This document shows positions 7,230 through 30,244 of a stretch of 32,000 nt of DNA, in pieces (positions within the stretch are counted from its first letter, which is position 1; each line of letters starts with the position of its first letter). The notes below the pieces were generated by a model that saw nothing but the letters and a program-made list of their open reading frames with translations, did no database searches and was not told where the DNA came from. Both the position numbers and the translations under genes were made by a program. The stretch covers positions 3,510,001 to 3,542,000 of the forward strand of contig NZ_LN831039.1 in NCBI RefSeq assembly GCF_001457595.1, read 5' to 3'. The DNA is from Mycolicibacterium smegmatis. Lineage in GTDB: Bacteria; Actinomycetota; Actinomycetes; Mycobacteriales; Mycobacteriaceae.

Positions 7230-8159
7230 CTACCGGGCCGGCCCCGCATCGAGGTTGGCGCGCGCCCATTCCTCGGCGGTCGTCGTGGCGATGCCGCGGG
7301 CCTCGTTGAACGTGCCCGATTTCGGCCATGCGACGCCTTTGCCCTGCGCAAACGCCGCGCGGTACTTGGCCAGACCGTCGTCAGGACGACCAGCTAGCTC
7401 CTCCAGCAGGTACGCGACGGTCCATTCGTTGCGGGTCACGGGCACTCCCCTGACCTTCTCGACGATGTCGGCGAGTTCGCGGTAGGAAATCGTATCTCCT
7501 GCGACATAGACGACCTGGTTTGCGATACGCGGGCGGGTCTGGATGATTTCAGCGGTCAGGACACCGATGTCCTCCGGGGTGGTGACGGTGACCTCGGTGT
7601 CCCAACTGCCGAGCGCGTTCACGGTGTTGGCGGCGAGGTCGACAACCCCGAAGTCGGGCTCGAACAGGAAGCTGGTGAACATCCCCGTCGACACGATCAC
7701 CCATTCGGTGTCGTCCTGGGCGCGGAGCATGTCCCTGACGTCGAGTTGCTCGTCGAACAGATCCTGCGGGCTGCCATGACCGATCGCGTCATAGTCGACA
7801 CCGAACTGCCACGGAAAATACCGGGAAACACGCGCCGCCAGCGCTGCCTCGGTGATCTTCCGCTGAGTACCGGGCCCGGCCGCAAAACCGATGCAGCTCA
7901 CCACTGTGTCGTACCTGCTGAAGACAGCCGACAACTCCGACACCGTTGCCGTTGCCACGTCCGCCTGTTCTACCTTCGCGCCCAGCGCGGCCAGTTCGTC
8001 TCGCAGCCGGGCGTGCCGGGGAGTGCCGGACGGCCTCAGCAGTACTGTCACCTCGGGGGCATCGTCGCGCCGAATCAGCGCAGCGACAACACTGCCGCCG
8101 AGCTCGCCGGCGCCGATGACAAGAATTTCTTCATGGTCTGATGAGTGTGATGCGGTCAT
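7230..8159 (-). CDS. NmrA-like / isoflavone-reductase-like NAD(P)-binding oxidoreductase
   Basis: I start at ATG 8159, which forms an ATGA overlap with the upstream stop. ILVIGAGELGGSVVAAL is a Rossmann motif. The length and C-terminal pattern are typical of the NmrA/PCBER family. Confidence 0.75.
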   Translation of the reverse strand: MTASHSSDHEEILVIGAGELGGSVVAALIRRDDAPEVTVLLRPSGTPRHARLRDELAALGAKVEQADVATATVSELSAVFSRYDTVVSCIGFAAGPGTQRKITEAALAARVSRYFPWQFGVDYDAIGHGSPQDLFDEQLDVRDMLRAQDDTEWVIVSTGMFTSFLFEPDFGVVDLAANTVNALGSWDTEVTVTTPEDIGVLTAEIIQTRPRIANQVVYVAGDTISYRELADIVEKVRGVPVTRNEWTVAYLLEELAGRPDDGLAKYRAAFAQGKGVAWPKSGTFNEARGIATTTAEEWARANLDAGPAR

Positions 8160-8641
8160 ACCTGTTCTCTCGGTTGGTGTTCTGGGCTCAGCGCCGAGCC
8201 ATGTTCCCGGAAGATGCACCAGCGGTTACCATGTCGGCGAAGAGCCAGGGATGATCGGGTGGGAACGACTTCCACGTCGCCGTTGTCGAACTCGAACCGA
8301 CTGCGAAAACACACGTCCGCAACGGCAAGGTCACCCGATACGGCCACGTGCGGGCCATCGATGATGGTGTTGTCCAGCGCCACAAGCTTTGTCAACGTAC
8401 GGTCCCAGATGGCCGCATACGATGCAGCCGAGCGGCAGAGCGCGCGATCGGGATCGGCGTTGTCGTGGAGTAGGACGTCAGCGCTGTCCCAATCATAGAA
8501 GGAGTCGAGCAGGCGACGGAAGTTGAACGTCTCACCACGTTCCAGGTGCCAGCCGTCGGTGACCCACTGAGAGACGAAGGCACGAAGTCCAGCGAGGGTT
8601 TCCGTTGCGGCATCGTTGGGTTGTTCAGCCGAGGTCGTCAT
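8156..8641 (-). CDS. SnoaL-like / NTF2-fold family protein
   Basis: 161 aa from ATG 8641, beginning MTTSAEQPND. It forms ATGA overlaps with both neighbours (8638-8641 and 8156-8159). It is a small alpha+beta protein with the W..D/H..D pattern typical of NTF2-like proteins. The rest of the 414-aa ORF in the track is antisense to the MFS gene and is rejected. Confidence 0.6.
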   Translation of the reverse strand: MTTSAEQPNDAATETLAGLRAFVSQWVTDGWHLERGETFNFRRLLDSFYDWDSADVLLHDNADPDRALCRSAASYAAIWDRTLTKLVALDNTIIDGPHVAVSGDLAVADVCFRSRFEFDNGDVEVVPTRSSLALRRHGNRWCIFREHGSALSPEHQPREQV

Positions 8642-9978
8642 CCGATCACCTCCTGCGATCGAACACTGTTGCGGTGAGCCAGCACCCAGACGGACAGACC
8701 TGTGAGAACGCATCCTGCCATCATGTAGAGAGCCACACTCGGCCAGCCGAAACTCGACAGCAGCGCGGTGGCCGTCATCGGTGCGAATGCACCTCCGATC
8801 ACCGCGCCGCTCTGAATACCCAGCGAGACACCCGAGTACCGGACTTCGGTGGAGAAGGTCTCGGCGAAGAATGCCGGCTGTACTCCGTACATCAGGCTGT
8901 GGAGCACGCCCAGTCCGACCACCATCGCCACGGTGATGAACCAGAACTGCCCGGTCTGGACGAGCATCCAGAAGGGAAGGGCGAACACCGCCAGCCCGAA
9001 CGCTCCACACAGGTACACCCGGGACCGCCCGATCCGGTCCGACACCGCACCGGCCAGTGGCAGCGCCAGCACCTGCCCGGTGGATCCGATGAGAACAGCG
9101 GCCAGCATGGTGCTCTGTGACAGGCCGAGAGTGCTGGTCCCGTAGGAGATCACGAATGTGATGAACAAGTAGTAGGTCAGATTGATTCCGATGTAGCTTC
9201 CGGCGGTCAGTGCCACCTCGGCCGGGTAGGTGCGAAGCACCGTCCAGACGGGTGAGCGCGTCTTTGTGACCACGACGGGCGCAGACTGTCGGAGTTCTTG
9301 CAGTCGCCGGAAGGACGGGGTGTCCTCGAGTTTGACGTGAACGTACAGGGCCAGACCGACCAGGATGAGACTCATCAGGAACGGGAGGCGCCAGGCCCAT
9401 TCAATGAGTGCCTCGGCGGAAACGCAGGCTGTCAACAGCAGGAAGATCACGTTGGCCAGCAGCACGCCGCCGGGGGCGCCCAGTGATGAGAAGCTGCCGT
9501 AGAACCCCCGTCGGCGGGGTGGTGCGGCTTCGACGGCCAGCAGCACCACTCCCCCCATCTGCCCGCCGATGGCGATGCCCTGCACGAACCTCAGCACGGT
9601 GAGTGCTACGGGTGCGAGAACGCCCACGGAGGCGTAGGTCGGCAGGACACCGATGGCGGTTGAGGCGATGCCCATGGCGATCAGGGCGATCACCAGTGTC
9701 TTCTTCCTGCCGATGAGGTCACCGAAGTGTCCGAACACCACGCCTCCCAGAGGTCGGGCCAAGAACCCGATCCCAAAGGTGCCGAACGACAGCAGAACTC
9801 CTGTGACAGAGCTCATCTCGGGGAAGAAGACGGCCGGGAAGACCAGCGCGGCCGCCAAACCGTAGATGAAGAAGTCGTAATACTCGATGCTCGCGGCGGT
9901 GGCCGCGATCGCGGCCACCCGGGTGACGTCGCGGTCGAGCACGTCGATCTCGTCGAGGTGCTGTTTCGGTGAAGTCAC
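8638..9978 (-). CDS. MFS transporter, metabolite:H+ symporter (MHS) family
   Basis: IEYYDFFIYGLAAALVFPAVFF is the MHS signature, with about 12 hydrophobic segments. My preferred start is GTG 9978, 7 nt after the ALDH stop. The alternative ATG 10077 would overlap the ALDH gene by 92 nt. Confidence 0.8.
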   Translation of the reverse strand: MTSPKQHLDEIDVLDRDVTRVAAIAATAASIEYYDFFIYGLAAALVFPAVFFPEMSSVTGVLLSFGTFGIGFLARPLGGVVFGHFGDLIGRKKTLVIALIAMGIASTAIGVLPTYASVGVLAPVALTVLRFVQGIAIGGQMGGVVLLAVEAAPPRRRGFYGSFSSLGAPGGVLLANVIFLLLTACVSAEALIEWAWRLPFLMSLILVGLALYVHVKLEDTPSFRRLQELRQSAPVVVTKTRSPVWTVLRTYPAEVALTAGSYIGINLTYYLFITFVISYGTSTLGLSQSTMLAAVLIGSTGQVLALPLAGAVSDRIGRSRVYLCGAFGLAVFALPFWMLVQTGQFWFITVAMVVGLGVLHSLMYGVQPAFFAETFSTEVRYSGVSLGIQSGAVIGGAFAPMTATALLSSFGWPSVALYMMAGCVLTGLSVWVLAHRNSVRSQEVIG

Positions 9979-9985
9979 GACAGTT

Positions 9986-11539
9986 TCACCCGGCCACGGC
10001 GATGACCTTGGTTTCCAGGAACTCCTGGAAACCCTCGACGCCGGATTCGCGGCCGAGACCGGACTCTTTGTATCCACCGGACGGCACGTCGTGCCCGTAG
10101 AAGAAGCCTCCGTTCACGGCGACCATGCCGCTGCGGATCCGGCGGGCGACGGTGACCGCAGCGTCCTCGTCGCCCCACACGTAGCCGGCCAGGCCATAGG
10201 ACGTGTTGTTGGCGATGTCGATGGCGTGTTCCACATTGTCGTAGGGAATCATCGCGAGCACGGGACCGAAGATCTCTCGCTGCGCGATGGTCGAGTGCGG
10301 ATCGACATCGGCGAACAGAGTTGGCTCGACGAAGAATCCGCCGCCGAAGCCGTCGGGGATCCTCCCGCCGGTGAGCAAGGTCGCTCCTTCAGCGACACCT
10401 TGCGCGATCAAACCCAGCACACGATCCTGCTGTACCTTGCTGATCTGAGGCCCCTGTACGATGCCGGGATCGGTGGGGTCGCCGAAAGGCATGTGCTCGA
10501 ATGTGATCCGCGCCAGTTCCCTGGCCTCGTCATAGCGTGAGCGCGGCACCAGCAACCGCGTGGGCAGCACGCACCCCTGACCGGCGTTCATGCAGACCAC
10601 CCCTGCTGCCTGCGGCACGATCTGGGTGAAATCTGCGTCTTCGAGCAAGATGTTGGCCGACTTGCCACCGAGTTCGAGCGCCACACGGGCCACACGCCCC
10701 GACGCGTCCGCCATCAGCTTCTTGCCGACCGCGGTGGAACCCGTGAAGTGCACCAGATCCACTCGCGGATCGACGGCGAGGCGTTCGGCAACTGCGTTGT
10801 CCGACGGTGTCACGACGTTGATGACACCGGCCGGGATATCGGTCTTCTCGGCGATCAATCTCGCCAACAAGGTGGCATGCCAGGGTGTTTGAAAGGCCGG
10901 CTTGAGGACCACGGTGGCGCCCGCCGCCAGTGCCGGCAAGATCTTGGTCATCGCGGTCTGCAGCGGGAAGTTCCACGGTGTGATCGCCGCAACCACGCCG
11001 ATCGGTTCTTGACGGATCACATGGCGGGTGCCTGACGCCCACGGGCGGTCCGGCATCGTGTGTTCGTATTCGAAGTTGGTGGCCATGTCGGCCCAATACG
11101 GTATGGACGAGATCGGCCAGTCCGAGTGGAACGTGTTGGTCGTCCGCACCGCCACTCCGATCTCGGCCACCGCGGTGGCCCGGAACTGATCGGCGGATTC
11201 GGCCATGGCCTTGTGCAACTGCAGTAAGCAGTGGCGCCGGAACTCCGCGTCGTGTGGCCAGCTCGATTCATCGAAGGCCCGCCTGGCGGCGTCGATGGCA
11301 CGGTCGACGTCGGCGGCGCCGGCATCGGCAACGGCCCCGATCACCTGCCCGGTTGCCGGGTTGACGTTGTCGAACGTCTTTCCGTCGGAGGCGGTGACGA
11401 GTTCGCCGGCGATGAGCATCGCCTCCTCGCCGTGCACGCCCCGCTTCAGGGCCGCCATGGTGGAGTCAGTGGGATCTTGCGCACCCCACAGCCCGCCGAG
11501 CACGCGCTTGAGTTCGATCAGATCGAAGCTTGTTGTCAT
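9986..11539 (-). CDS. NAD(P)+-dependent aldehyde dehydrogenase
   Basis: 517 aa. Motifs are FDNVNPATG, WNFPL, ELGGKSA and NAGQGC (catalytic Cys). A GAGGAA RBS lies 6 nt before ATG 11539. Confidence 0.9.
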   Translation of the reverse strand: MTTSFDLIELKRVLGGLWGAQDPTDSTMAALKRGVHGEEAMLIAGELVTASDGKTFDNVNPATGQVIGAVADAGAADVDRAIDAARRAFDESSWPHDAEFRRHCLLQLHKAMAESADQFRATAVAEIGVAVRTTNTFHSDWPISSIPYWADMATNFEYEHTMPDRPWASGTRHVIRQEPIGVVAAITPWNFPLQTAMTKILPALAAGATVVLKPAFQTPWHATLLARLIAEKTDIPAGVINVVTPSDNAVAERLAVDPRVDLVHFTGSTAVGKKLMADASGRVARVALELGGKSANILLEDADFTQIVPQAAGVVCMNAGQGCVLPTRLLVPRSRYDEARELARITFEHMPFGDPTDPGIVQGPQISKVQQDRVLGLIAQGVAEGATLLTGGRIPDGFGGGFFVEPTLFADVDPHSTIAQREIFGPVLAMIPYDNVEHAIDIANNTSYGLAGYVWGDEDAAVTVARRIRSGMVAVNGGFFYGHDVPSGGYKESGLGRESGVEGFQEFLETKVIAVAG

Positions 11540-11548
11540 GTGGGTTCC

Positions 11549-12667
11549 TCAGGCTTCCGGATCGTGGATGATGACGCCGCGGATGTTGACGCCGGCGCGT
11601 AGGTCGTCGTAGCCCTGGTTGATGTCTTCCAGGCGGTAGCGGGTGGTGATCAGCTCGTCCAGCTTCAGCTTTCCCTCGTCGTAGAGGCGCAGCAGACGGA
11701 CTATGTCGTACTGCGGATTCGACGATCCGAACAGACATCCTTTGATGGTCTTCTCCATCAAGGTCATCTCCATCCCGGAGACATGAACAGTCAGCTTGGC
11801 CGGGTCGGCAAGGCTGGCGAGGCTCACGGTGCCACCTTTGCCGATGACGTTGAACGCATCGCTCACCACTTTCTCGTCCGGTGTCCCGACGAAGATCAAA
11901 GCGCCGTCCGCCATCTGACCCCAGGTGATCTCGCGAACGGCCTCATGGGCCTCCTCTGCGGTGGCGAACGCGTGTGTTGCGCCGAACTTCAGCGCCATAT
12001 CCCGTTTGAATTCGACCGGATCGACCGCGACGACGTACCTGGCACCGGCCATCACCGCGCCTTGAATCGCGTTGATACCCAAACCGCCGATGCCATAGAT
12101 CACTGCGGTGTCACCGGGCCGGATGCCGTTGTTGTACACGGGCCCACCCCAGCCGGCGGGTACACCGCATCCGACCAGCACCGCAGTCTCCAGGGGTATC
12201 CACTCGTCGACTTTGACGACGGAGTGCTGAGACACAGTGGTGCGTTCGGCGAAACTCCCCAGGAGGCAGAGGCTTCCGTAATCGACACCGTCTTTGTGGA
12301 AGCGAAAGGTGCCGTCGGGGAAACGTCCGTCGAGAATCGTCGCTCCCATGTCACAGAGGTTCGAACGGCCGGTCGCGCAGTATCGGCAGGTGCCGCAGTT
12401 GGGGATGTAGCTGCACACCACGTGGTCGCCCGGTTTCACCTTGGTGACGCCGGGTCCGACGTCCTCGACGATGGCCGATCCCTCGTGCCCACCGACGATC
12501 GGGTACCTCGGGGGCATGTCTCCGTCGGTCAGGTGCAGATCGGAGTGACACAGACCGGCGGCGACGTTCTTGAGCAGGACCTCACCCTCTTTGGGGCCGT
12601 CGAGCTCGAGCTCCATGATTTCGAACGGTCTGTTCACCCCGAGGCTCACGGCGGCTTTGGTTTTCAT
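11549..12667 (-). CDS. Zn-dependent alcohol dehydrogenase (NDMA-dependent/nicotinoprotein-like subgroup)
   Basis: I start at ATG 12667, preceded by a [51 protein letters not shown] is an MDR zinc-ADH pattern. The extended start at 12817 is rejected. Confidence 0.85.
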
Positions 12668-12830
12668 CTCGGACGGTTCCTTCCACGAAATTTTGTGACG
12701 AGAACACCGAAGCGGTGGAAAGCCAATCGGCCGACGGTCGTGCGAAGTGAACATCGCCGGACCCAGGAGGTCGATGTGGCTGGGATCACTATGCACGATC
12801 GTGTCATTGGTGCGCAATAGCGGTCCTCTT

Positions 12831-12844
12831 TACGTAATTACGTA
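12831..12844. promoter_or_regulatory. Operator O1: perfect 14-bp palindrome TACGTAATTACGTA
   Basis: Read directly from the sequence. It lies in the 300-bp divergent intergenic region, 164 nt upstream of the ADH start. Confidence 0.6.
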
Positions 12845-12881
12845 TCGATCTGTCATGTCGCGCCGAGGGGTCTCGGTCAAC

Positions 12882-12895
12882 TATGTAATTACGTA
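12882..12895. promoter_or_regulatory. Operator O2: TATGTAATTACGTA, a 13/14 match to O1
   Basis: Read directly from the sequence. It is 51 bp from O1 (start to start, about 5 helical turns) and 73 nt upstream of the ThDP-enzyme ATG. Confidence 0.55.
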
Positions 12896-12967
12896 ACTAA
12901 ACACGTTATTGCGAAATTCCCGCGAACGTGCCAGAGTGATGTGGAGCACTCCGGGAGAAAGGCGGAC

Positions 12968-14587
12968 ATGAAGGTCTACGAGCAGGTGGCCAGACAGCTG
13001 TCCGGGCATTCGGTGGACACGGTGTTCGGGCTCCTCGGTGACGCAAACATGTACGTCTGCAGCGCATTCGAGGCGGCGGGCGGCCGGTTGGTGCGGACGT
13101 CACACGAGGCCGGCGCCGTCAGCATGGCCGATACGTACGCACGAATGACCGGCCGGTGGGGAGTCGCCGCGGTCACCCACGGGCCTGGCCTCACCAACGC
13201 GCTCACGCCGCTCGTCGAAGCCGCTCGCTTCCCGAGTCCAATTCTGCTGATCACGGGTGACACCCCGGCCGAAGCGACCCATATGCAGCGCCTCGACATC
13301 GCCGCGCTCTGCGCATCGGTGGGGGTGACCCACGAGAGGATCCACCGGCCGGACACTGTGCGCCGCGACTTCGCCCGCGCCGTGCAACGCCTCAAATCGA
13401 CGAATGCTCCTGTTGTGCTCAACGTTCCGCTACCGGTCAGCCTGTCGGACGTTGATTCACCGGACACCGTCTCGATCCCGTCCGCGGCCTGGGCGCCGTC
13501 GGCGCCGCATACCGACGAAGAGGCGCTGGACGCCGCCTTGGGGCTCGCAGCGTCTGCATCGCGCCCGGTGGTTGTCGCGGGGCGAGGTGTGATCGAAAGT
13601 GGCGCAGAAGCTTCGGTTCTCGACCTGGTCGAGGCGCTCGACGCGGGCCTGTTCACAAGCGGACTCGGTCTCGGCCTGTTCACCGGACATCCGCGTCATC
13701 TCGGGATCATGGGCAGCATCGGCCACGACGAGGCCACTCAGGTGCTCGCCGACAGCGACTGTGTGATCGCGGTCGGCGCCAGCCTGAACAAGTACACGAG
13801 TTTCGGCGGTGAGCTCTTCGAGGGTAAGTCGCTCATCCAGATCGACCGCGACCCAGTGAAACTGGGCTGGTTCGTCACCCCGACCTGCGTGGTCGCCGGA
13901 GATGCGCGAGCGGTCACCGCGTTGATGGCCGACAACATCCGGGAGGGGCAACTGCCCGAGAAGAAACAGTGGAGACAGCGGTGTCACGAGGCATCGGCTG
14001 CCATGGCGCAGTGGACACCGCCCGACGATCGGACCGGCACCGACACCCTCGACATCCGCGTCGCCACCCAGCATCTCGACGCTCTGCTCCCCCCGGGCTG
14101 CGCCATCATCAGCGACGTCGGCCGGTTCATCGCCGGGTCCTGGCCGTACATCACCAAGGCCACGCCCGGAAAGTTCACGGCGATGACGGGGTTCGGCTCC
14201 ATTGGTCTGGGGCTCGCCGGAGGGATCGGCGCTGCGGTCAGCGATGTCAGCGACGTGACCGTGGTCCTCGTCGGGGACGGCGGATTCATGATGAACGTCT
14301 CCGAACTCGCCACGGCAGTTCGCGAGAGGTTGCCCATGGTCATCGTGGTGTACAACGACGGTGCGTACGGCGCCGAGTACCAGAAGCTCGTCAATGAAGG
14401 CTTTCCCGCACACCACTCGTACAACGAGTGGCCCGACATCGCGCGAACAGCCGCCGGAATGGGCTGCCGCGCCTTGACGATTCGCAAGCCCGAGGACTTC
14501 GAGTCCGTCGGAGAAGCGATCACCCGGCTGTCCGGGCCCCTCGTGCTCGACATCCGTCTCGATCCGACCCACCACCTGAACTTCTGA
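12968..14587 (+). CDS. Thiamine-diphosphate-dependent enzyme (ALS/POX/BFD/oxalyl-CoA decarboxylase superfamily)
   Basis: I start at ATG 12968, preceded by a GGGAGAAAGG RBS. SHEAGAVSMADTYAR carries the catalytic Glu. GDGGFMMNVSELATAVRERLPMVIVVYNDG is the GDG-X-N(D/N) ThDP/Mg motif. 539 aa. Confidence 0.85.
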   Translation: MKVYEQVARQLSGHSVDTVFGLLGDANMYVCSAFEAAGGRLVRTSHEAGAVSMADTYARMTGRWGVAAVTHGPGLTNALTPLVEAARFPSPILLITGDTPAEATHMQRLDIAALCASVGVTHERIHRPDTVRRDFARAVQRLKSTNAPVVLNVPLPVSLSDVDSPDTVSIPSAAWAPSAPHTDEEALDAALGLAASASRPVVVAGRGVIESGAEASVLDLVEALDAGLFTSGLGLGLFTGHPRHLGIMGSIGHDEATQVLADSDCVIAVGASLNKYTSFGGELFEGKSLIQIDRDPVKLGWFVTPTCVVAGDARAVTALMADNIREGQLPEKKQWRQRCHEASAAMAQWTPPDDRTGTDTLDIRVATQHLDALLPPGCAIISDVGRFIAGSWPYITKATPGKFTAMTGFGSIGLGLAGGIGAAVSDVSDVTVVLVGDGGFMMNVSELATAVRERLPMVIVVYNDGAYGAEYQKLVNEGFPAHHSYNEWPDIARTAAGMGCRALTIRKPEDFESVGEAITRLSGPLVLDIRLDPTHHLNF

Positions 14588-14601
14588 AGGGACCACCCAC
14601 C

Positions 14602-15375
14602 GTGACCGCTCCCCTGCGCATCGATCGAGCCGGCCGGGTCCAGACCTGGACCATCGACGTCCCGGATGCGGCCAATGCCATCACCGGTTCCGATTTCATC
14701 GACGCCTTCGACGCCGCCGTCGATGCCGCGAACGCCGACACCGACATCTCTGTGGTGATTCTCACCGGTGCCGGGCGCTTCTTCTCCGCGGGCGGAAACG
14801 TCCGTGACATGCGAGACCGCACAGGGGTTTTCGGACTGGGTCCGCTTGACCAACGGCATGGTTACACGTCGGGCATCCAGCGTGTCCCGCGCGCCCTGCA
14901 GCGCTGTGAAGTTCCGGTCATCGCCGCGGTGAACGGAGCGGCGATCGGTGCGGGATGTGACCTCGCCGTCATGTGCGATCTGCGCATCGCCGCGGAAAGT
15001 GCCTTCTTCGCAGAGAGTTTCGTGCAGCTGGGGTTGATTCCAGGCGACGGTGGTACGTGGTTCCTGCCTCGCGCGGTGGGCTGGGCACGCGCTGCGGAGA
15101 TGACGTTGACCGGCGACCGCGTGGATGCTGCCACGGCGTTGTCGTGGGGCCTTGTGAATGAGGTGCTGAGTGACGACGAGCTGTTGCCCGCCGCTCACCG
15201 ACTCGCCGAACGCATAGCGAAGAACCCCGCGCCTGCAGTCCGGATGGCGAAGCGGCTTCTCCTCGAGTCCCGCACGGCATCGCTGGACTCGACGCTGGCG
15301 CTGGCGGCTGCCCTGCAGCCGCTCGCCCATCAGGATCCCGAGCATCACCGCCGCGTCGCCGAACTGACGCGCTGA
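14602..15375 (+). CDS. Enoyl-CoA hydratase/isomerase (crotonase) family protein
   Basis: I start at GTG 14602. VVILTGAGRFFSAGGNV and AAVNGAAIGAGCDLAVMCDLRIA are crotonase oxyanion-hole blocks. Confidence 0.85.
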   Translation: MTAPLRIDRAGRVQTWTIDVPDAANAITGSDFIDAFDAAVDAANADTDISVVILTGAGRFFSAGGNVRDMRDRTGVFGLGPLDQRHGYTSGIQRVPRALQRCEVPVIAAVNGAAIGAGCDLAVMCDLRIAAESAFFAESFVQLGLIPGDGGTWFLPRAVGWARAAEMTLTGDRVDAATALSWGLVNEVLSDDELLPAAHRLAERIAKNPAPAVRMAKRLLLESRTASLDSTLALAAALQPLAHQDPEHHRRVAELTR

Positions 15376-15392
15376 CAGAATCGAGTGAGGAT

Positions 15393-16625
15393 TTGACAGG
15401 CAACACAACAGACTTCAGCTGTCCGGCGGTGGCGCCGGGTGCCCTGGACGGCGTCACCGTCCTGGACCTGACAACGGTGGTGATGGGCCCGTTCGCCACC
15501 TCGATGCTCGGTGACCTCGGGGCTGAGGTCATCAAGGTCGAGGCGCTCGACGGTGACATCACACGGCGCATGGGCCCGCAGCGCAATCCCGGTATGACCG
15601 CCTTGACACTGGGTTTGCAGCGGAACAAGCGCAGCATCGCATTGGACCTCAAAACCGCTGAAGGAAAAGAGGTTCTGGCACGACTGGTGCGTGAATCCGA
15701 CGTCGTCGTCTCCAATTTGCGGCCCCAGTCACGTGAGGACCTCGGGCTCAGCTACCCGGCCCTCCGCGCGATCCGCGCGGATGTGATCCTGTGCACCGCC
15801 CAGGCCTACGCCGAGGCGAGCCCACAACGCAACGAGCCCGCCTACGACGACATGGTGCAGGCCGCATCCGGGCTGACCTCTCTGGTCGAGGCCGTCGACG
15901 GTGTTCCCCGCTACGCGCCCTATGTCATCGCGGACAAGGTGAGTGGGCTCTACATCGTGATCGCGGTGCTCAGCGCATTGATGCACCGTGCAGCGACCGG
16001 CTCCGGCCAGCACGTCGAGGTGCCCATGGTCGACGCGATGGTCCACTTCAACCTCGTGGAGCATCTCAGTGGGCAGACATTCGCACCGCCGGCCGGGGAT
16101 TTCGGCTGGAAACGGGTGCTGGTCCCGGAGCGTGCCCCCTACCGGACGTCTGACGGATACGTCTGCATCCTGCCCTACACCGACGCCAACTGGCGGGGCT
16201 TCTTCACGCTCACCGGGCTGACGGACCTCCTGACCGACCCCAGGTTCACCGACGTCGACAAGCGACATCAGAACATGGGTTACCTCCACTCCATGATCAG
16301 CCGGATCACGCCGCAGCGCTCAACACAGGAATGGCTGGATCTGTGCCGGGACAACGACATTCCTGCTGCGCGTCCCCTCGACCTGACCCGTGTCACCGAA
16401 GACTCGTACGTGATGGATCACGGTGTGCTGCAGCGAAACAGTCATCCCACCGAGGGTGATTACTTCAGCGCCCTGACGCCCCTGCGGATGAGCGGGTCGC
16501 CTGTGAGCCTTCGCCGCCATGCCCCCATATTGGGTGCCCACACCGCAGAGGTGTTGTCCGAGCTGGGGTACACCGACGACGAGATCACCAGCCTGTCCGA
16601 CAACGCAGTGGTGGTGATCAAATGA
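15393..16625 (+). CDS. Family III CoA-transferase (CaiB/BaiF/Frc type)
   Basis: Blocks are LDGVTVLDLTTVVMGPFATSMLGDLGAEVIKVE, QRNKRSIALDLK and NLRP. The start is uncertain: TTG 15393 sits very close to GAGGA, and GTG 15429 is an alternative. Confidence 0.85.
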   Translation: MTGNTTDFSCPAVAPGALDGVTVLDLTTVVMGPFATSMLGDLGAEVIKVEALDGDITRRMGPQRNPGMTALTLGLQRNKRSIALDLKTAEGKEVLARLVRESDVVVSNLRPQSREDLGLSYPALRAIRADVILCTAQAYAEASPQRNEPAYDDMVQAASGLTSLVEAVDGVPRYAPYVIADKVSGLYIVIAVLSALMHRAATGSGQHVEVPMVDAMVHFNLVEHLSGQTFAPPAGDFGWKRVLVPERAPYRTSDGYVCILPYTDANWRGFFTLTGLTDLLTDPRFTDVDKRHQNMGYLHSMISRITPQRSTQEWLDLCRDNDIPAARPLDLTRVTEDSYVMDHGVLQRNSHPTEGDYFSALTPLRMSGSPVSLRRHAPILGAHTAEVLSELGYTDDEITSLSDNAVVVIK

Positions 16626-17755
16626 CTGCTCCCACGATGTCCGCGGTCGTACCCGATCCTGCGTGGCGGGACCTGCGGCAGCAGGTTCGCAGTTTCCTCG
16701 CCGACCAACTCGCGGCGCACCGGTTCGAGCCAGGTATCGACGGCTGGCTCACCGGATGGTCCGACACCTTCAGCCGGTCGCTTGCCCAGCAGGGCTGGGT
16801 CGGCATGACGATTCCCCGTCAGTACGGTGGGCACGGGCGCAGCCACTTCGAGCGCTTCGTCGTCACGGAGGAACTTCTGATCGCCGGGGCCCCGGTGGCG
16901 GCGCACTGGATCGCCGACCGCCAGGTGGCGCCGTCGCTGCTGCGATATGGCACCGAGGAACAGAAGAAAGAGCTGCTGCCGGAGATCGCCGCCGCCCGGT
17001 GCACGTTCGCGATCGGCATGAGTGAGCCCGACTCGGGCTCCGACCTGGCGAGCGTGCGTACCCGCGCCGTCCCCGTCGACGGCGGTTGGCTCCTCAATGG
17101 CACCAAGGTCTGGACGTCCGGAGCGCACCACGCCGCCAAGATCCTCGTTCTGGCCCGCACCAGCGGCAGCCACGGCGACCGTCATCGGGGACTCTCGCAG
17201 CTCGTCGTCGATCTCCGGGCGCCAGGCGTCGAGATCGTGCCGATCGAGTCGCTCGACGGTGGCCATCACTTCAACGAAGTGGTGTTCACGGATTGTTTCG
17301 TCCCGGCCGAAGGCCTGCTCGGCGCCGAGGGGCAGGGCTGGAAGCAGGTGACAGCGGAGCTCGGCTTCGAACGCAGCGGACCCGAGCGGTTCCTGTCGAC
17401 CGCACTGGTGGTGCGGCTGTTGATCGAACATGTCACCCGCGGCGAAATCAGCCCGGAACCGGTGCTGGGGCAGTTTCTGGCCCGGCTGCACGGGCTGCAC
17501 CAGATGTCGCTGTCGGTCGCCGCCGCACTCGACCGCGGCGAGAACGCCGATGCGGCCGCGGCGATGGTTAAGATGCTCGGCACCGCCACCGAGGGCGATC
17601 TCGTACAAACTGCCGACTATCTCACCGCGACACTGTCGGGCCCTCTGCGTGACGCCGTGACGTGGGCGACCGTGCAAAGGCCGGGATTCACGTTGCGCGG
17701 CGGCACAAACGAGGTTCTCGCAGGCGTGATCGCGAGAGGATTGGGGTTGCGATGA
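16622..17755 (+). CDS. Acyl-CoA dehydrogenase family protein (first of an adjacent pair)
   Basis: 377 aa. FAIGMSEPDSGSDLASVRTRA and NGTKVWTSGAHHA are ACAD middle-domain blocks. It forms an ATGA overlap with the CoA-transferase gene. Confidence 0.85.
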   Translation: MTAPTMSAVVPDPAWRDLRQQVRSFLADQLAAHRFEPGIDGWLTGWSDTFSRSLAQQGWVGMTIPRQYGGHGRSHFERFVVTEELLIAGAPVAAHWIADRQVAPSLLRYGTEEQKKELLPEIAAARCTFAIGMSEPDSGSDLASVRTRAVPVDGGWLLNGTKVWTSGAHHAAKILVLARTSGSHGDRHRGLSQLVVDLRAPGVEIVPIESLDGGHHFNEVVFTDCFVPAEGLLGAEGQGWKQVTAELGFERSGPERFLSTALVVRLLIEHVTRGEISPEPVLGQFLARLHGLHQMSLSVAAALDRGENADAAAAMVKMLGTATEGDLVQTADYLTATLSGPLRDAVTWATVQRPGFTLRGGTNEVLAGVIARGLGLR

Positions 17756-18735
17756 CAACGTTGGAGGCCATGGTCGATCGAGACCTGCGGGCACTGATCG
17801 ACTCGGTGCTGGCGAACCACGCCTGCCATGACGACCAGAAGCTGTGGCAGACGTTCGGCGAGCTCGGACTCGCCGACCTGACGCAGAGCGAGGAGCGTGG
17901 TGGAAGCGGCGCTTCCTGGCCCGAGGCGGCAGCGCTGGCACGCGCACTGGCTCGCCGCGGTTGCAGGCTGGAGGTGTCCGAGAGCGACCTCGTGGCGGGC
18001 TGGCTGCTCGAGCAGGCAGGTGCACCGCCGCGGCAGGCGTTACGCATCGCACTCTTCGACGACGAACACATCAACGTGCCCACCGCATCCGGTCTCGTCG
18101 AACGCGTCGCGGTGGTCGGCCATGACGGCGAGGAGTATCACGTCAGCGACGTCCCCGTCACGGACATCGGCGGTGACAGGGAGGGTGATCTCCACCGTGA
18201 CGAAGACCGTCGCGATCGCCACCTCATCACCCGGGAGACCTTCGAGCTGGCGCGGACGCGTCGGTCACTGGTGCGGGCCATCCAGATCAGCGCGACGCTG
18301 GAGACCATAGCGGAGCTCGCGATCGAGTACGCGCAAACTCGCGAGCAGTTCGGCCGCCCCATCGGTAAACAGCAAGCCGTGCAACGCATGATCGCCATCA
18401 TCGCCGGAGAGTCGGCACTGGCGCGTGCTGCGACCGACGCCGCGGTGTTGGCCGTCTCCGACGACGCCACGCCCGCAACGCAGGTCGCCGCCATGGTCGC
18501 GGTCGCCCGCTCATGCTGTGGACACGCAGTCGATCCCGTCATACGGAACGCCCACCAGGTGATCGGTGCCATCGGAACCACCCGCGAGCACCCGCTGCAC
18601 GTGTTCACCTCCGCCGCATTGGCTCTTCGCGACCGAGACCGCTCCACTCGGGAATGGGATGCCGCTGTACTCGACTTGACCATTCAGGCACAACCACTCA
18701 GCGACCTCGACCTCACGCCGGTTCGCACCAAATGA
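17752..18735 (+). CDS. Acyl-CoA dehydrogenase family protein (second, shorter partner)
   Basis: I start at ATG 17752, an ATGA overlap with the first ACAD. EYAQTREQFGRPIGKQQAVQRMIA is the ACAD C-terminal domain block. It is 327 aa with a divergent N-terminal half. Confidence 0.75.
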   Translation: MTTLEAMVDRDLRALIDSVLANHACHDDQKLWQTFGELGLADLTQSEERGGSGASWPEAAALARALARRGCRLEVSESDLVAGWLLEQAGAPPRQALRIALFDDEHINVPTASGLVERVAVVGHDGEEYHVSDVPVTDIGGDREGDLHRDEDRRDRHLITRETFELARTRRSLVRAIQISATLETIAELAIEYAQTREQFGRPIGKQQAVQRMIAIIAGESALARAATDAAVLAVSDDATPATQVAAMVAVARSCCGHAVDPVIRNAHQVIGAIGTTREHPLHVFTSAALALRDRDRSTREWDAAVLDLTIQAQPLSDLDLTPVRTK

Positions 18736-18746
18736 AAGGATCAACG

Positions 18747-19166
18747 ATGACCGACGCGACCCGCACCTGCGAGATTCCCGATTCGATGCAGCACAAGGTG
18801 ATCTCGCTTGCCGATGCCCCGGAGATCCCCGGGCGCCGCACCTTCCTGCAGTATTTCGACGTCGGTATTGCCGACGCGAGCAATGGGCTCATCAGCACCC
18901 AGGTGACCAGAGTCCGTGCCGGCATGAGCAATCCGACCGGTTGGCACTACCACGACTGCGTGTTCCAGTGGCTGTTGATCACCAAGGGCTGGCTGGAGTT
19001 GCAGTTCGAAAACGGTGAGAGCAAGCGCATCGAGCAGGGAAGCGTCTGCTTCATCCCGGGTGGCTACCGCCACAACGAAACCGGGACCTCGGATGATCTG
19101 GAGTTCGTCGAGATCTTCATGCCTCCCAAGCCGCGGACTGTTGCTGTTGAATCACCACTGGCCTGA
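18747..19166 (+). CDS. Cupin-domain protein
   Basis: I start at ATG 18747, preceded by an AAAGGA RBS. WHYHDCVFQW...FIPGGYRHNE matches the cupin motif 1 and motif 2 pattern. 139 aa. Confidence 0.7.
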   Translation: MTDATRTCEIPDSMQHKVISLADAPEIPGRRTFLQYFDVGIADASNGLISTQVTRVRAGMSNPTGWHYHDCVFQWLLITKGWLELQFENGESKRIEQGSVCFIPGGYRHNETGTSDDLEFVEIFMPPKPRTVAVESPLA

Positions 19167-19192
19167 ACCATCGCCGAGACAAGGACGTCCGC

Positions 19193-19969
19193 ATGGAACT
19201 GCGTTTCACCGAGTCAGACTCGGTTCTCATCACGGGCGGCTCGCGTGGCATCGGTGCTGCCACCGCACAGCTGTTCGCGGCCGAGGGGGTGGGTCGGATC
19301 CATCTGGTCGGGCGTGACAAGGATTCACTCGAACAGTTGCGTGCCGGTATCGACGCCGACGTGACCTGTCATGCCCTCGACCTGTCCTCACCGACGGATC
19401 GGGCCCAACTGGCCGAAACAGTCGCCGAGACAGACATTTTGATCAACAATGCCGGCGCGATACCGCAGGGTTCCTTGGACGACGCCGATCTCGCGGCGTG
19501 GCAACGTGCCTGGGAGCTCAAGGTGTGGGGATACCTCGAGCTGAGCCAGATGGCACTCAGAGCCATGAAGGCCCGCAAATCCGGAGTGATCGTCAACGTG
19601 GTCGGATTGTCCGGCGAGCGTCCGGATGCCGGATATCTGGCCGGTTCCATGGCCAACTCGGCCCTGATGACCTTCACCCGCGCGGTCGGCGCGTACTCCT
19701 TGGATGACGGTGTACGCGTCGTCGCGGTCAATCCCGGACCGGTGCAGACACAGCGCTTGCTCGATGCGCTGCACGTCAGGGCCCGCACGGATTTGGGTGA
19801 TTCCCAACGGTGGCCGGAGTTCGTCGCGCACTATCCGGCACAGCGTATGGCCACCGCGGAGGAAGTGGCCGACACCATCGCGTTTCTGGCGTCACGTCGA
19901 AGCAGCTACACCAGCGGCACCGTGGTCACGTTGGACGGGGGTATGGCCTGGCGCGGCCGCGCACTGTGA
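19193..19969 (+). CDS. SDR-family oxidoreductase
   Basis: ITGGSRGIGAATA is the cofactor motif and NNAG is present. 258 aa with an AAGGAC RBS. Confidence 0.85.
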   Translation: MELRFTESDSVLITGGSRGIGAATAQLFAAEGVGRIHLVGRDKDSLEQLRAGIDADVTCHALDLSSPTDRAQLAETVAETDILINNAGAIPQGSLDDADLAAWQRAWELKVWGYLELSQMALRAMKARKSGVIVNVVGLSGERPDAGYLAGSMANSALMTFTRAVGAYSLDDGVRVVAVNPGPVQTQRLLDALHVRARTDLGDSQRWPEFVAHYPAQRMATAEEVADTIAFLASRRSSYTSGTVVTLDGGMAWRGRAL

Positions 19970-19978
19970 GTCGTCGGC

Positions 19979-20737
19979 CTAACCGGCCTGCTCCCAACGT
20001 CGGCGGTGCGACGTCAACAGCTCGACCAGTTCGTCCCTGCGGCTGTGGATCTCCTCGTGCGGCCCGACCACGCTGACCGCCGCAACCGTGCGACCACCCT
20101 CACGTACGGCCACGGCCACACCATCTGCGACTTCCGAGATATGCGGCGCCGCACAGACTCCGGTCTCCTGAATCGCTTCGAGTTCGTTCAGGAATCGTTC
20201 GCGGTTCGTGTCCTCCTCGGCAGGAAGTGAACTCAGATAGCTCCATAGGTCCCGGCGCGCGAAACCTGCCAGCAGAACCCATCCACTCGACGTGCGGATG
20301 AGCGACCGGCGTACCAGGTTCTTGGCCAGGTAGTCGTAACGTGGAGTCGAGGAGCAACTGTCGACATAGAACACGCCCTGCCCCACGACGACCGACAGCA
20401 AGGTCGTCAGGCCGGCATCGGCGTGTACCGCCTCGAGCTCCTGATGACCGACCTGTGTCACGAGATGCCGGCCGGCCATGAGGTTCAACAGATACGGTGC
20501 ACCCCCGAGTCGATAGCGACGGTCATGCTCGTCGAGATAACCCGCGGCGACCAGACCGTTGACGAGACCTTGCAGGGAACTCAACGGGGCGTCCAGGAGT
20601 CGGGCGAGTTCGGTGAGCGTGAGCCCGTCATGGTTACGGGCGGCCAGTTCGAGGATGCCGGCAACACGATCGACCATGCGGTGCCGTTTGCGAACGGGGT
20701 TCGCGGGCTCGGAGTGTGCCGAACGCTCGGGGGTCAT
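19979..20737 (-). CDS. IclR-family transcriptional regulator
   Basis: VDRVAGILELAARNHDGLTLTELARLLDAPLSSLQGLVNGLVAAGYL is an IclR wHTH, followed by a C-terminal effector domain. The start is either ATG 20737 or GTG 20755; neither has a clear SD. Confidence 0.85.
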   Translation of the reverse strand: MTPERSAHSEPANPVRKRHRMVDRVAGILELAARNHDGLTLTELARLLDAPLSSLQGLVNGLVAAGYLDEHDRRYRLGGAPYLLNLMAGRHLVTQVGHQELEAVHADAGLTTLLSVVVGQGVFYVDSCSSTPRYDYLAKNLVRRSLIRTSSGWVLLAGFARRDLWSYLSSLPAEEDTNRERFLNELEAIQETGVCAAPHISEVADGVAVAVREGGRTVAAVSVVGPHEEIHSRRDELVELLTSHRRRWEQAG

Positions 20738-20757
20738 GGAACCATTGAACCACACAC

Positions 20758-20771
20758 TACTTAAATACGTA
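20758..20771. promoter_or_regulatory. Operator O3: TACTTAAATACGTA, a 12/14 match to O1
   Basis: Read directly from the sequence. It lies 3 nt upstream of GTG 20755 and 21 nt upstream of ATG 20737 of the IclR gene, and 23 nt downstream of the M20 stop. Confidence 0.5.
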
Positions 20772-20793: not shown

Positions 20794-22125
20794 TCAGTGT
20801 CGCGCTGCCGTGTCTTCGACGCCGCACCATCGCGCGACGAAGAGCGCGATCGACTTGGTGATGCGGCGGACCGACTCGATGTCGACCCGCTCGTCGAAAC
20901 CGTGGATGTCCTTGGAGATCGGACCGTACACCAGCGCCGGGATGTTCGCGTACTGGACGAAGACCCGGCCGTCCAGGTAACCGGGGGTCGTGAAACTCTG
21001 CAGCGGGGCACCGCCGAAGGCGTCGGCGTGGCTCTCCCCCAGGATCGCCTCGGCATCCGAACCCTCCTCCAACACATAGCCTTCGGCGTAGAACCCGGTG
21101 GCCGTCGCCTCGGCCGAGACCGGGTGGCCGTTGCCGTCGTGTTCGATGGCGGCGAGTTCGGCCGTGATCTCGGACCACGCCTCGTCCGCCGTGATGCCGG
21201 GATAGAACGCGATCCTCAGATCGAGTTCGCACCACGCGGGCACGCTGGAGTTCCAGTCGCCGCCTTTGATCTTGCCGACGTTGAGGTTGATGGGGTGCTC
21301 GAGGTCCTCGAAGTGGCGGTGTTTCCCCTTCTCGGCGTTCCAGCGCTCCTCCAGCCTGCGCAACCTCTCGACCACGAAATACGCCGCGTCGATCGCGTTG
21401 AAGCCGGAACTCATCTCGCGGGGGTGGGTGGGATGCCCCGCGACCCGAACGCGGAACCAGATGGTGCCGACGTTCGCGCGGACCAGCATGTCCTCTTCGG
21501 GTTCGGGAATCAGGACGGCGTCGGCCGTGTAGCCGCGCATCAACGCCGAAAGTGAACCGTTGCCCGTGCACTCCTCCTCCACCACGGATTCGAAGTGGAT
21601 GCGGCCCAGCGGTTCCAGTCGGGCGGCGCGTAGTGCGTCGAAAGCGAACAGGTTGGCCACCAATCCGGCCTTCATGTCACCGCTACCGCGTCCGTACAGC
21701 CACCCGTCGACGACCTCGGCCTCCCACGGCGAACGCTGCCACTGGGCTTCCGGACCTTCGGGAACGACGTCGATGTGGCCGTTGAGGATCAGTGATCGAC
21801 CGAGCTCCTGACGGGGGCGGTAGGTGCCCACGACGTTGTCGACGCCCCGGTAGGAGATCTCGACCTTTCCGGCGCCGGGATGTGTCGCGAGTTGCTCGGG
21901 ATCGAGTTCCCAGCGGTCCATCTCCAGGCCGCGTCCCGACATGGCGCCGTAGAGCAGATCCTGCGCGGAAGCCTCGTCTCCGCGCAGGGACGGGTGGCGG
22001 ACCAGCTCTTGCGTGAACTTCAGCTGCCTGTCGAACTGCGCATCCACCGCGGCGAGGATCCGGTCGCGCTGCTCTGGAGTGAGTGCCGGAACGGTGGCGT
22101 GGGTCTTGGCGTGGATAGTTGTCAC
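20794..22125 (-). CDS. M20-family metallopeptidase/deacylase (ArgE/DapE/ACY1/CPG2 type)
   Basis: 443 aa. LNGHIDVVPEGPEAQWQRSPWEAEVVDGWLYGRGSGDMKAG is the M20 catalytic block. GTG start. Confidence 0.85.
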   Translation of the reverse strand: MTTIHAKTHATVPALTPEQRDRILAAVDAQFDRQLKFTQELVRHPSLRGDEASAQDLLYGAMSGRGLEMDRWELDPEQLATHPGAGKVEISYRGVDNVVGTYRPRQELGRSLILNGHIDVVPEGPEAQWQRSPWEAEVVDGWLYGRGSGDMKAGLVANLFAFDALRAARLEPLGRIHFESVVEEECTGNGSLSALMRGYTADAVLIPEPEEDMLVRANVGTIWFRVRVAGHPTHPREMSSGFNAIDAAYFVVERLRRLEERWNAEKGKHRHFEDLEHPINLNVGKIKGGDWNSSVPAWCELDLRIAFYPGITADEAWSEITAELAAIEHDGNGHPVSAEATATGFYAEGYVLEEGSDAEAILGESHADAFGGAPLQSFTTPGYLDGRVFVQYANIPALVYGPISKDIHGFDERVDIESVRRITKSIALFVARWCGVEDTAARH

Positions 22126-22181
22126 GGGATCATCCGCCCATCATGAGTCGAGGTGTCAAATCTGTTGTTTCCGGATCTGTT

Positions 22182-23504: not shown

Positions 23505-23572
23505 GCCTTCCAGTCTGTTAGCGGATACTCCAACCCACAATCGCAGGGCTCCTAAGAATCGGCCGCTAGAGT

Positions 23573-24712: not shown

Positions 24713-24775
24713 TGACGTCACATTCTTGAAACTTCACGACAACATCTAGGTCATCGACTGCGCCGACGATCTTGG

Positions 24776-24785
24776 TGTGATCACA
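24776..24785. promoter_or_regulatory. 10-bp perfect palindrome TGTGATCACA overlapping the putative GTG start of the GntR::amidase ORF
   Basis: Read directly from the sequence. The GT...AC core fits the general GntR/FadR operator pattern. The half-site ATCACA recurs about 27 bp downstream. An alternative start is TTG 24804. Confidence 0.3.
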
Positions 24786-27796: not shown

Positions 27797-27812
27797 TTCA
27801 GAAAGTCCGCTC

Positions 27813-30172: not shown

Positions 30173-30206
30173 GCTCGTGCGCCTGACTCCGTGTGAATCT
30201 GCGCGC

Positions 30207-30225
30207 GGTCCGGGTTTGTCGGACC
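30207..30225 (+). terminator. Weak stem-loop after the amidase operon
   Basis: GGTCCG (30207-30212), a 7-nt loop ggtttgt, then CGGACC (30220-30225), followed by cttctg. The stem is short and there is no clear U-tract. Confidence 0.25.
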
Positions 30226-30244
30226 CTTCTGCGATGATGGGGTC

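Follow-up and report, generated by a model that had tools for sequence, protein, structure and literature searches.

Several described enzyme systems bear on the gene cluster reported here. The pathway of the 2-hydroxyacyl-CoA lyase (HACL) AcHACL is fed by an alcohol dehydrogenase (ADH) and an aldehyde dehydrogenase (ALDH) and uses a ligase, and a Baeyer-Villiger monooxygenase (BVMO) and a thiamine diphosphate (ThDP)-dependent hydrolase are alternative routes from cyclohexane-1,2-diol to adipate. Among ThDP enzymes, the glutamate that protonates the C2-alpha carbanion is found at equivalent positions in pyruvate decarboxylase (PDC; E473/E477), AcHACL (E493) and Xsc (E510) (PMC13327070), while HACL has two arginines (R260 and R400) that bind CoA, and a C-terminal peptide that acts as a cover (PMC11271303). 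In PMC10143770, AerF is cited as a reductase of alkenal double bonds, together with a cupin isomerase from its pathway. Here, we analyse a window (the whole stretch of DNA studied) of 32,000 nucleotides from Mycolicibacterium smegmatis (contig NZ_LN831039.1, positions 3,510,001 to 3,542,000), in which a 13-gene locus, MSMEG_3384-3396, combines a ThDP enzyme, CoA-handling enzymes and a gene for an IclR-family regulator. This cluster is a conserved catabolic regulon of known enzyme folds and is apparently undescribed, as a literature search by locus tag returned two passing mentions only and no functional study.

A conserved catabolic regulon

The first-pass annotation of this DNA had described 12 genes in two divergent operons acting as one catabolic unit. 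The 12 open reading frames (ORFs) have one terminal stop each and their family labels were confirmed by profile scans (NCBIfam, Pfam), so that this inventory stands; what it overlooked are the IclR gene (20755-19979) and three palindromes. The plus-strand operon, the regulator and the palindromes, in window coordinates, are as follows, SDR standing for short-chain dehydrogenase/reductase and ACAD for acyl-CoA dehydrogenase.

12831..12844, no strand: perfect 14-bp palindrome TACGTAATTACGTA, candidate IclR operator, the sole perfect copy in the 7-Mb genome
12882..12895, no strand: second palindrome copy with 1 mismatch, 5' of the ThDP gene
12968..14587, plus strand: ThDP enzyme of the POX family, MSMEG_3389 (number by counting), motifs GDAN, THGPG, DVGRF and YGAE
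14602..15375, plus strand: crotonase of the PRK09245 family (NF006699, 367 bits, above the cut-off of 354)
15393..16625, plus strand: family III CoA-transferase with PF02515 fold and catalytic Asp (TIGR03253, 231 bits, below the cut-off of 504)
16622..17755, plus strand: ACAD, catalytic-type subunit, MSMEG_3392, best PDB matches 4x28 and Tcur3483, invariant ER motif
17752..18735, plus strand: short divergent ACAD subunit that lacks the Pfam middle domain, R-QF and GAIG invariant
18747..19166, plus strand: small cupin with HYH..Q..H metal site, resembling the uncharacterised PDB 2o8q; 66-86% identical in 9/9 related loci, motif invariant
19193..19969, plus strand: atypical SDR of the PRK06125 family (NF004779, 372 bits, above the cut-off of 261), YxxxK absent
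19979..20755, minus strand: IclR-family regulator, MSMEG_3396 (PF09339 and PF01614), 63-85% identical in 9/9 related loci, convergent to the plus operon
20758..20771, no strand: third palindrome copy with 2 mismatches, directly 5' of iclR

Nine related loci were examined, with ThDP enzymes 54-78% identical to that of the window; they come from Mycolicibacterium, Saccharopolyspora, Amycolatopsis sp. ATCC 39116, Nocardioides, Aeromicrobium, Dietzia and two metagenomes. The order ThDP enzyme, crotonase, CoA-transferase, ACAD, ACAD, cupin and SDR, with a convergent IclR gene, is kept in all nine, and the arrangement is therefore not due to chance. The palindrome points the same way. Three copies occur in the window against 0.09 expected, and these are the three top-scoring sites in a scan of the whole genome; each of the nine related loci has similar sites close to the ThDP gene, in most of them some 80-90 nt 5' of its start, and eight have them ahead of iclR. 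The palindrome is a probable operator to which IclR would bind, and the third copy is a putative site at which iclR probably regulates itself. Since the shared palindrome joins both operons and iclR, it supports the view of one conserved catabolic unit. The genome-wide palindrome scan returned no further convincing regulon member: a site at genome position 2906691, which precedes a GGDEF-like gene, was rejected with a score of 16 against 25-28. Promoter and terminator scans gave nothing above chance.

The minus operon is arranged as first described, with ADH, a 9-nt gap, ALDH, a 7-nt gap, the MHS-family transporter, an ATGA overlap, the SnoaL-like gene, a second ATGA overlap and the NmrA-like gene, and the ATGA overlaps of the plus operon (CoA-transferase/ACAD and ACAD/ACAD) are likewise confirmed. 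Its members are listed here, NDMA being N,N-dimethyl-4-nitrosoaniline.

7230..8159, minus strand: NmrA-like (isoflavone-reductase-like) atypical SDR, MSMEG_3384 (number by counting), PF05368; accessory, in 3/9 related loci, all mycobacterial-type
8156..8641, minus strand: SnoaL-like (NTF2-fold) protein, PF13474 at 25 bits; accessory, in 2/9 related loci
8638..9978, minus strand: MHS-family metabolite:H+ symporter (TIGR00883, 391 bits, below the cut-off of 443; the next model is a shikimate transporter), in 5/9 loci
9986..11539, minus strand: ALDH, relative of the Rv0768 family (TIGR04284, 597 bits, below the cut-off of 775)
11549..12667, minus strand: NDMA-dependent (nicotinoprotein) zinc ADH (TIGR03989, 537 bits, above the cut-off of 440)

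Conservation of the 12-gene set thus holds for the seven plus-strand genes, joined by IclR, and fails for the minus operon, whose content varies across the nine loci: ADH (88-93% identical) in five, an ALDH orthologue in five (one of them a fragment, with a different ALDH in a sixth locus), the transporter in five, NmrA in three and SnoaL in two. The minus operon is accessory, and the SnoaL-like and NmrA-like proteins lie outside the core. Other genes have been added elsewhere: an old yellow enzyme (OYE) flavoenzyme in four related loci and, in three, a further SDR (with a second one in two of them) together with a beta-hydroxyacid-dehydrogenase-like gene.

Assignment to MSMEG_3384-3396 rests on three observations, namely the near-identity of the crotonase to the solved structure PDB 7MCM, the sequence QYGGHGR, which is reported at residue 67 of MSMEG_3392 (PMC9431677) and is carried by the first ACAD, and a proteome table in which MSMEG_3396 is entered as an IclR protein (PMC5656591). 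The remaining MSMEG numbers (e.g. 3384, 3389) were obtained by counting. The GC content of the cluster is 64.4% against 67.3% for the genome (a single contig of 6,983,267 bases), and a stretch of about 110 kb around the window (genome 3460000-3570000) lies at 63-66%, which is consistent with acquired DNA. A ThDP match of more than 38% identity was present in 0 of 90 sampled genomes of the genus, so the cluster is patchy there, and no close ThDP homologue was found on plasmids. A scan of genome contigs for ThDP relatives, dominated by matches resembling acetolactate synthase (ALS) through a generic motif, gave three relevant loci. The Saccharopolyspora copy appears to be decaying, as each of its crotonase, its CoA-transferase and its second ACAD is either short or split (L101:11629-14712). 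Its ADH is 88% identical to that of the window, compared with 61-71% for the core.

The ThDP enzyme

The ThDP enzyme passes no NCBIfam cut-off, and the top 50 Foldseek matches of its structure model (predicted local distance difference test, pLDDT, 94) are only 21-24% identical and belong to the generic POX family. Trees were built with host ALS, Gcl, PoxB, IolD, Oxc, benzoylformate decarboxylase (BFD) and Kdc-like enzymes together with IlvG and Xsc; IlvG and Oxc stood in for AcHACL, RuHACL and cyclohexane-1,2-dione hydrolase (CDH), and as 'quick' IQ-TREE searches with long branches the trees leave deep nodes unresolved. The enzyme falls in a clade of its own (support 99-100), and Oxc clusters with IlvG. 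The approximately unbiased test rejects trees that join the cluster enzymes to Oxc/IlvG (p-AU 3e-6) or that nest the family with IlvG (p-AU 0.0014).

In the active site, the activating Glu47 is invariant, and Asp25, Gln107 and Glu470 are conserved in the clade, Glu470 in 90 of 91 homologues. This last residue is equivalent to the carbanion-protonating glutamate and aligns with the Glu of the host indolepyruvate-decarboxylase-like enzyme, of IlvG and of Xsc; in acetohydroxyacid synthase (AHAS)/ALS, POX and Gcl the position is filled by Val or Ile. Asp25 corresponds to Asp27/28 of PDC. Oxc and IlvG have both CoA-binding arginines and the C-terminal cover, which the clade lacks; in the window's enzyme an ALS-like loop and Pro393 take the arginine positions and the chain stops a few residues past the last strand. 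Because Glu470 and Asp25 are present and the CoA arginines and cover are not, we propose from these residues that the enzyme probably acts on a substrate without CoA, a 2-oxo acid being the likeliest, and releases an aldehyde from it. It may work like PDC without belonging to that family.

Comparison with named families agrees with this separate position. The Oxc models TIGR03254 and PRK09259 are not among the 25 best, and so score below 162 bits against a cut-off of 739, and the G-I-P loop of Oxc is replaced by GDAN. The IlvG-family model PRK05858 reaches 172 bits of 587, the AruI model 236 of 500 and the Xsc model PRK07525 226 of 620; Xsc forms a separate clade, with the GAE motif in common, and BFD and IolD lie in other clades with other motifs. 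The host Kdc-like enzyme is about 24% identical and again in a separate clade. An ALS assignment was rejected, with TIGR00118 at 243 bits against 538, Glu470 present, and GDAN and RF in place of the ALS motifs G-G-A and Q-H. The earlier expectation of an enzyme outside ALS thus holds, and a lyase/decarboxylase glutamate is indeed present, whereas membership of the Oxc/IlvG clade is rejected and the sought CoA-binding residues are missing.

Homologues at 35-50% identity occur in varied clusters, often beside ring-hydroxylating or cyclase genes and mostly without the CoA module. Of the candidates scored, 2,474 match the GDAN/THGPG clade with an E-value of 1e-60 or lower, a number that includes some more distant relatives. 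Among the 16 POX-family ThDP genes of the host genome are two oxc and a near-identical pair of poxB; the genome contains no PRK05858 (IlvG family) match, which is present in 11 of 15 sampled genomes of the genus.

Cupin and SDR

In the SDR, Gly151 and Asn155 stand at the YxxxK positions and a K-x-x-G-Y motif (Lys110, Tyr114) is present, all four residues being invariant in 25 sequences. The best PDB match of the profile is 6jh7 (1e-55), which we take to be AerF, and YwfH (3u49) was also matched; Lys110, Tyr114 and Asn155 are shared with 6jh7. On these residues the SDR is a probable C=C (ene) reductase. As YxxxK is absent and the match is AerF-like, it is unlikely to act as the 3-hydroxyacyl-CoA dehydrogenase in a beta-oxidation triad. 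The sole structural match of the cupin is the uncharacterised 2o8q, and we regard the cupin as a probable isomerase or tautomerase.

Other PRK06125 genes lie among genes for nucleoside transport, hydrolases, carbamoylases and aminotransferases, a setting that would suit a C=C reductase of the pyrimidine type. Two such loci (L202:226-12335 and L200:6836-12233) pair the SDR with an aminotransferase, an alpha/beta hydrolase and a carbamoylase-type amidase, with a nucleoside phosphorylase and deoC added in Rhizobium. They look like a reductive pyrimidine route in which the SDR replaces dihydropyrimidine dehydrogenase.

A portable CoA module

The ADK motif of the CoA-transferase carries a catalytic Asp that is invariant and aligns with that of Frc, so the suggestion that activation is by CoA transfer remains plausible; identity as Frc itself was rejected on the TIGR03253 score. 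The two ACAD genes are adjacent and divide the flavin motifs between them, with R-x-QF on the short subunit and the catalytic Glu on one subunit. The pair scores below every specific cut-off, the best NCBIfam model being PimC (159 bits against 624). A predicted complex of the pair scored 0.89 against 0.01 for the best control, with runs agreeing on at least 94% of contacts and partner pLDDT of at least 84; 51 of 78 solved pairs reach the score mark, as do 2 of 108 mismatched ones, and the value may reflect likeness to the solved ChsE4-E5. The two ACADs are probably one alpha2beta2 enzyme. Canonical enoyl-CoA hydratases use a Glu pair (E144/E164 of rat ECH). The crotonase has Asp120 and Phe140 at these positions, plus Asp149, both Asp being invariant in 10 sequences, an Asp pattern seen in hydrolytic or isomerising members of the family. 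Its next-best models include the oxepin-CoA hydrolase and PaaG families. The ACAD-crotonase-dehydrogenase triad once proposed here is consequently doubtful: the SDR lacks YxxxK, the crotonase lacks the Glu pair and the two ACADs are probably a single enzyme.

The cluster contains no thiolase or ligase, as had been noted, and no dedicated one travels with it in any of the nine related loci. Thiolases about 7 kb (L137) and 10 kb (L138) upstream in two loci were rejected as members, being missing from the others; that of L137 sits in a thiolase-FabG-MaoC triad resembling the housekeeping one. ORFs genome-wide include 12 thiolase-like, 51 ligase-like and 4 HAD-like sequences, the nearest thiolase lying about 380 kb off.

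Parts of the module recur with other partners. On Rhodococcus plasmids (L140, L205) an orthologous crotonase (60-61%), ACAD pair (57-61%) and IclR (57-59%), with the same palindrome, accompany a BVMO, a lactonase or hydrolases, an ALDH and a CoA-transferase only 30% identical, and no ThDP enzyme or thiolase lies beside them. One version adds an iron-type ADH and a methylmalonate-semialdehyde dehydrogenase (MMSDH). Novosphingobium has the module with a LysR regulator, no ThDP enzyme and no adjacent thiolase. In the host itself a second module (3002555-3012352, contig C1), with a crotonase 68% and an ACAD pair 62% and 42% identical, stands with an acyl-CoA ligase, a zinc ADH, an ALDH, a SnoaL-like gene and a divergent flavin monooxygenase-like gene, and here too neither a ThDP enzyme nor a thiolase is present. 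In Cupriavidus, a thiolase does accompany a copy of the ACAD pair. The absence of a thiolase is therefore a property of the module and, contrary to the reasoning of the first-pass annotation, no argument for ThDP-dependent cleavage of an acyl-CoA. The swap in Rhodococcus further implies that the set of ThDP enzyme, cupin and SDR fills the slot held there by the BVMO route. The Rhodococcus-cluster IclR is found on at least seven Rhodococcus plasmids.

Proposed pathway and its alternatives

In light of these features, what might the locus degrade? We propose, with a probability of roughly 0.4, an IclR-controlled catabolic regulon for a small, probably unsaturated or cyclic, carbonyl acid, built of two separable modules. 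In the CoA-free upper module, the cupin would shift a double bond or tautomerise the substrate, the PRK06125 SDR would reduce the conjugated C=C, and the ThDP enzyme would cleave the C-C bond beside the carbonyl and release an aldehyde, most likely by non-oxidative decarboxylation of a 2-oxo acid. The ALDH would oxidise this aldehyde to an acid, with the ADH and transporter as accessories; the MHS symporter probably imports an organic anion. In the portable lower module, the family III CoA-transferase would activate the acid from a donor such as succinyl-CoA, the alpha2beta2 ACAD would desaturate it and the Asp-type crotonase would then hydrate or hydrolyse the product, leaving housekeeping beta-oxidation enzymes encoded elsewhere to finish the degradation. 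Tentatively, the order isomerise, reduce and decarboxylate is the reading that calls for the least new chemistry.

Several points weigh against this proposal. Three related loci have no ALDH within 10 kb, which is awkward if aldehyde oxidation is obligatory, and the ADH and ALDH may instead be an entry step. Glu470 also occurs in lyases and Xsc and is therefore not specific to decarboxylation, and Gln107 matches Q128 of AcHACL and Q120 of IlvG (as well as ALS and Xsc), the His pair of PDC being absent. A deep sister relation of the ThDP family to Oxc plus IlvG is not rejected (p-AU 0.24), and in Streptomyces netropsis (L145:4971-13910) a sister-clade ThDP gene follows a fused double family III CoA-transferase. 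Finally, the profile, structure and homology searches made here found no known reaction for any member of the ThDP family. The S. netropsis operon also holds a hydrolase, a mandelate-racemase-like enzyme, two SDRs and an amidase, and polyketide synthase genes adjoin it.

A bolder version of the chemistry, which we consider unlikely, is a CoA-neutral route in which the CoA-transferase, the alpha2beta2 ACAD and the Asp-type crotonase would open a ring, such as that of a furan- or pyran-type carboxylate. The free 2-oxo acid so formed would be decarboxylated by the ThDP enzyme, with neither ATP activation nor thiolysis. Alternatively, the ThDP family would carry out an undescribed ring cleavage that replaces the BVMO and does without oxygen.

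Also unlikely is a closed CoA loop with the ThDP enzyme downstream. The ADH and ALDH would oxidise a primary alcohol borne by an O- or N-heterocycle, of the tetrahydrofurfuryl, furfuryl or dihydropyranyl type, to an acid; CoA-transferase, ACAD and Asp-type crotonase would desaturate the ring and open it to a 2-oxoacyl-CoA and pass the CoA to the next acid, so that no thiolase or ligase would be needed, and cupin and SDR would adjust the free 2-oxo acid for decarboxylation by the ThDP enzyme. The dispensable ADH and ALDH, as expected of an entry module, the oxepin-CoA hydrolase and PaaG models, the decarboxylase-like ThDP residues and the beta-hydroxyacid-dehydrogenase-like gene added in three loci all fit, and alpha2beta2 ACADs accept bulky ring substrates. 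Direct evidence for a heterocycle is absent, however, a literature search on tetrahydrofurfuryl alcohol and Amycolatopsis 75iv2 having given nothing relevant, and in Rhodococcus the lower module is naturally read as acting after BVMO, lactonase and ALDH. A literature search on that BVMO cluster likewise found nothing relevant.

The same Rhodococcus swap suits a ring-cleaving hydrolase or acyloin lyase (CDH- or IolD-like). A cyclic diol or enone would be oxidised and reduced to a 1,2-dione, which the ThDP enzyme would open to an omega-oxo acid; the ALDH would make the diacid and the CoA module would beta-oxidise it. The swap matches because BVMO and ThDP hydrolase are alternative routes in the cyclohexane-1,2-diol case. 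The extra SDRs and OYE of several loci, the PimC match of the ACAD and the fact that CDH likewise protonates the carbanion are in keeping with it. Yet CDH carries Asn in place of Glu470 and is a low-ranking match in the profile search, IolD lies elsewhere in the tree with different motifs, and the anion symporter suggests an acid substrate. We hold this reading to be quite unlikely.

The first-pass annotation itself favoured an Oxc/Frc- or HACL-type enzyme that cleaves an acyl-CoA, with formyl-CoA returned to the CoA-transferase, and this now looks distinctly improbable. Glu470 and Gln107 match E493 and Q128 of AcHACL and E472 and Q120 of IlvG, human HACL2 is also short at its C-terminus (PMC8760513), and the ThDP gene always heads the CoA operon, to which may be added the sister-clade gene behind a CoA-transferase and the deep sister relation that, as mentioned above, is not rejected. 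Against these stand the missing arginines and cover peptide, the two rejected placements with Oxc/IlvG (AcHACL itself being outside the tree), the failure of the Oxc models together with a transferase that is not Frc, and the clusters without a CoA module in which most homologues at 35-50% identity lie. Moreover, an ACAD and a crotonase normally yield a 3-hydroxy, not a 2-hydroxy, acyl-CoA. Lastly, an Xsc-like elimination from an aldehyde with a beta leaving group to an acyl-phosphate or acyl-CoA would draw on the shared GAE motif and Glu, on the Xsc model, which gives the best E-value among family members, and on the place of Xsc among the closest outside sequences by BLAST (27-28% identity), but the sub-threshold score, the separate clade and the lack of a phosphotransacetylase, acetate kinase or sulfite exporter in ten loci leave it highly improbable.

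Significance and neighbouring DNA

The locus defines an orphan pathway in a species widely used in the laboratory, and its predicted repressor and operator give a handle on its substrate. A solved reaction would serve three unassigned families, namely the GDAN/THGPG ThDP clade, the PRK06125 SDRs and the PRK09245 crotonases (one with a crystal structure), and there is demand in biocatalysis for new ThDP decarboxylases or lyases and for SDR ene-reductases. Without its substrate, the locus stands as a plausible catabolic island of known enzyme types.

Beyond the cluster, window positions 20794-31483 hold an ArgE/DapE-type peptidase, an MHS transporter, a PucR-type regulator, a 741-amino-acid ORF, a LamB/YcsF-like frame, a cytosine-permease-like transporter, an aliphatic amidase/formamidase-like gene and an HNH/DUF222-like gene. 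The 741-amino-acid ORF (24777-27002) joins a GntR-like domain to an amidase and may be a true fusion or a two-gene read-through. This group is missing from all related loci, and its amidase, permease and formamidase-like genes were for that reason rejected as cluster members. On the other side, a minus-strand ORF (1747-2652) with a signal-like N-terminus, an Ala/Pro-rich linker and a transglycosylase-like C-terminal motif is possibly a secreted cell-wall enzyme.

Comparison with known systems

As in Oxc/Frc, a POX-family ThDP gene adjoins a family III CoA-transferase gene; unlike there, neither gene passes its cut-off, the CoA arginines and cover are absent, and ACAD, crotonase, cupin and SDR have no place in that system, for which the host carries two true oxc genes elsewhere. 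With AcHACL the cluster enzyme shares the Glu and Gln at the E493 and Q128 positions, but it is distant (7pt1, 97 bits), has no C-terminal lid or CoA arginines, and is accompanied by an ACAD and a crotonase, which the AcHACL pathway is not known to have. PDC, the indolepyruvate decarboxylases and Ehrlich-type routes offer the catalytic pair matched by Asp25 and Glu470, and an adjacent ALDH and ADH; the low identity to the Kdc-like enzyme, Gln in place of the His pair, the separate clade and the CoA module that follows set the cluster apart.

For the upper module, AerE/AerF (aeruginosin Choi) and BacB/BacG (bacilysin) likewise place a small cupin beside an SDR that lacks YxxxK and has K-x-x-G-Y and a later Asn. 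Those pairs are biosynthetic and handle prephenate-derived keto acids, homology of the cupin to AerE is not established, and the context here is catabolic. For the lower module, ChsE4-ChsE5, Tcur3481-3483 and PimCD show the same adjacent ACAD genes with split flavin motifs (best PDB matches 4x28 and 6wy9), although the window's pair, for which a heterodimer is predicted, stays below the specific cut-offs and its cluster is not a steroid one. In the Rhodococcus BVMO cluster, a BVMO and hydrolases replace the ThDP enzyme, cupin and SDR and the CoA-transferase is divergent, but the crotonase, ACAD pair, IclR and palindrome are those of the M. smegmatis locus in orthologous form.

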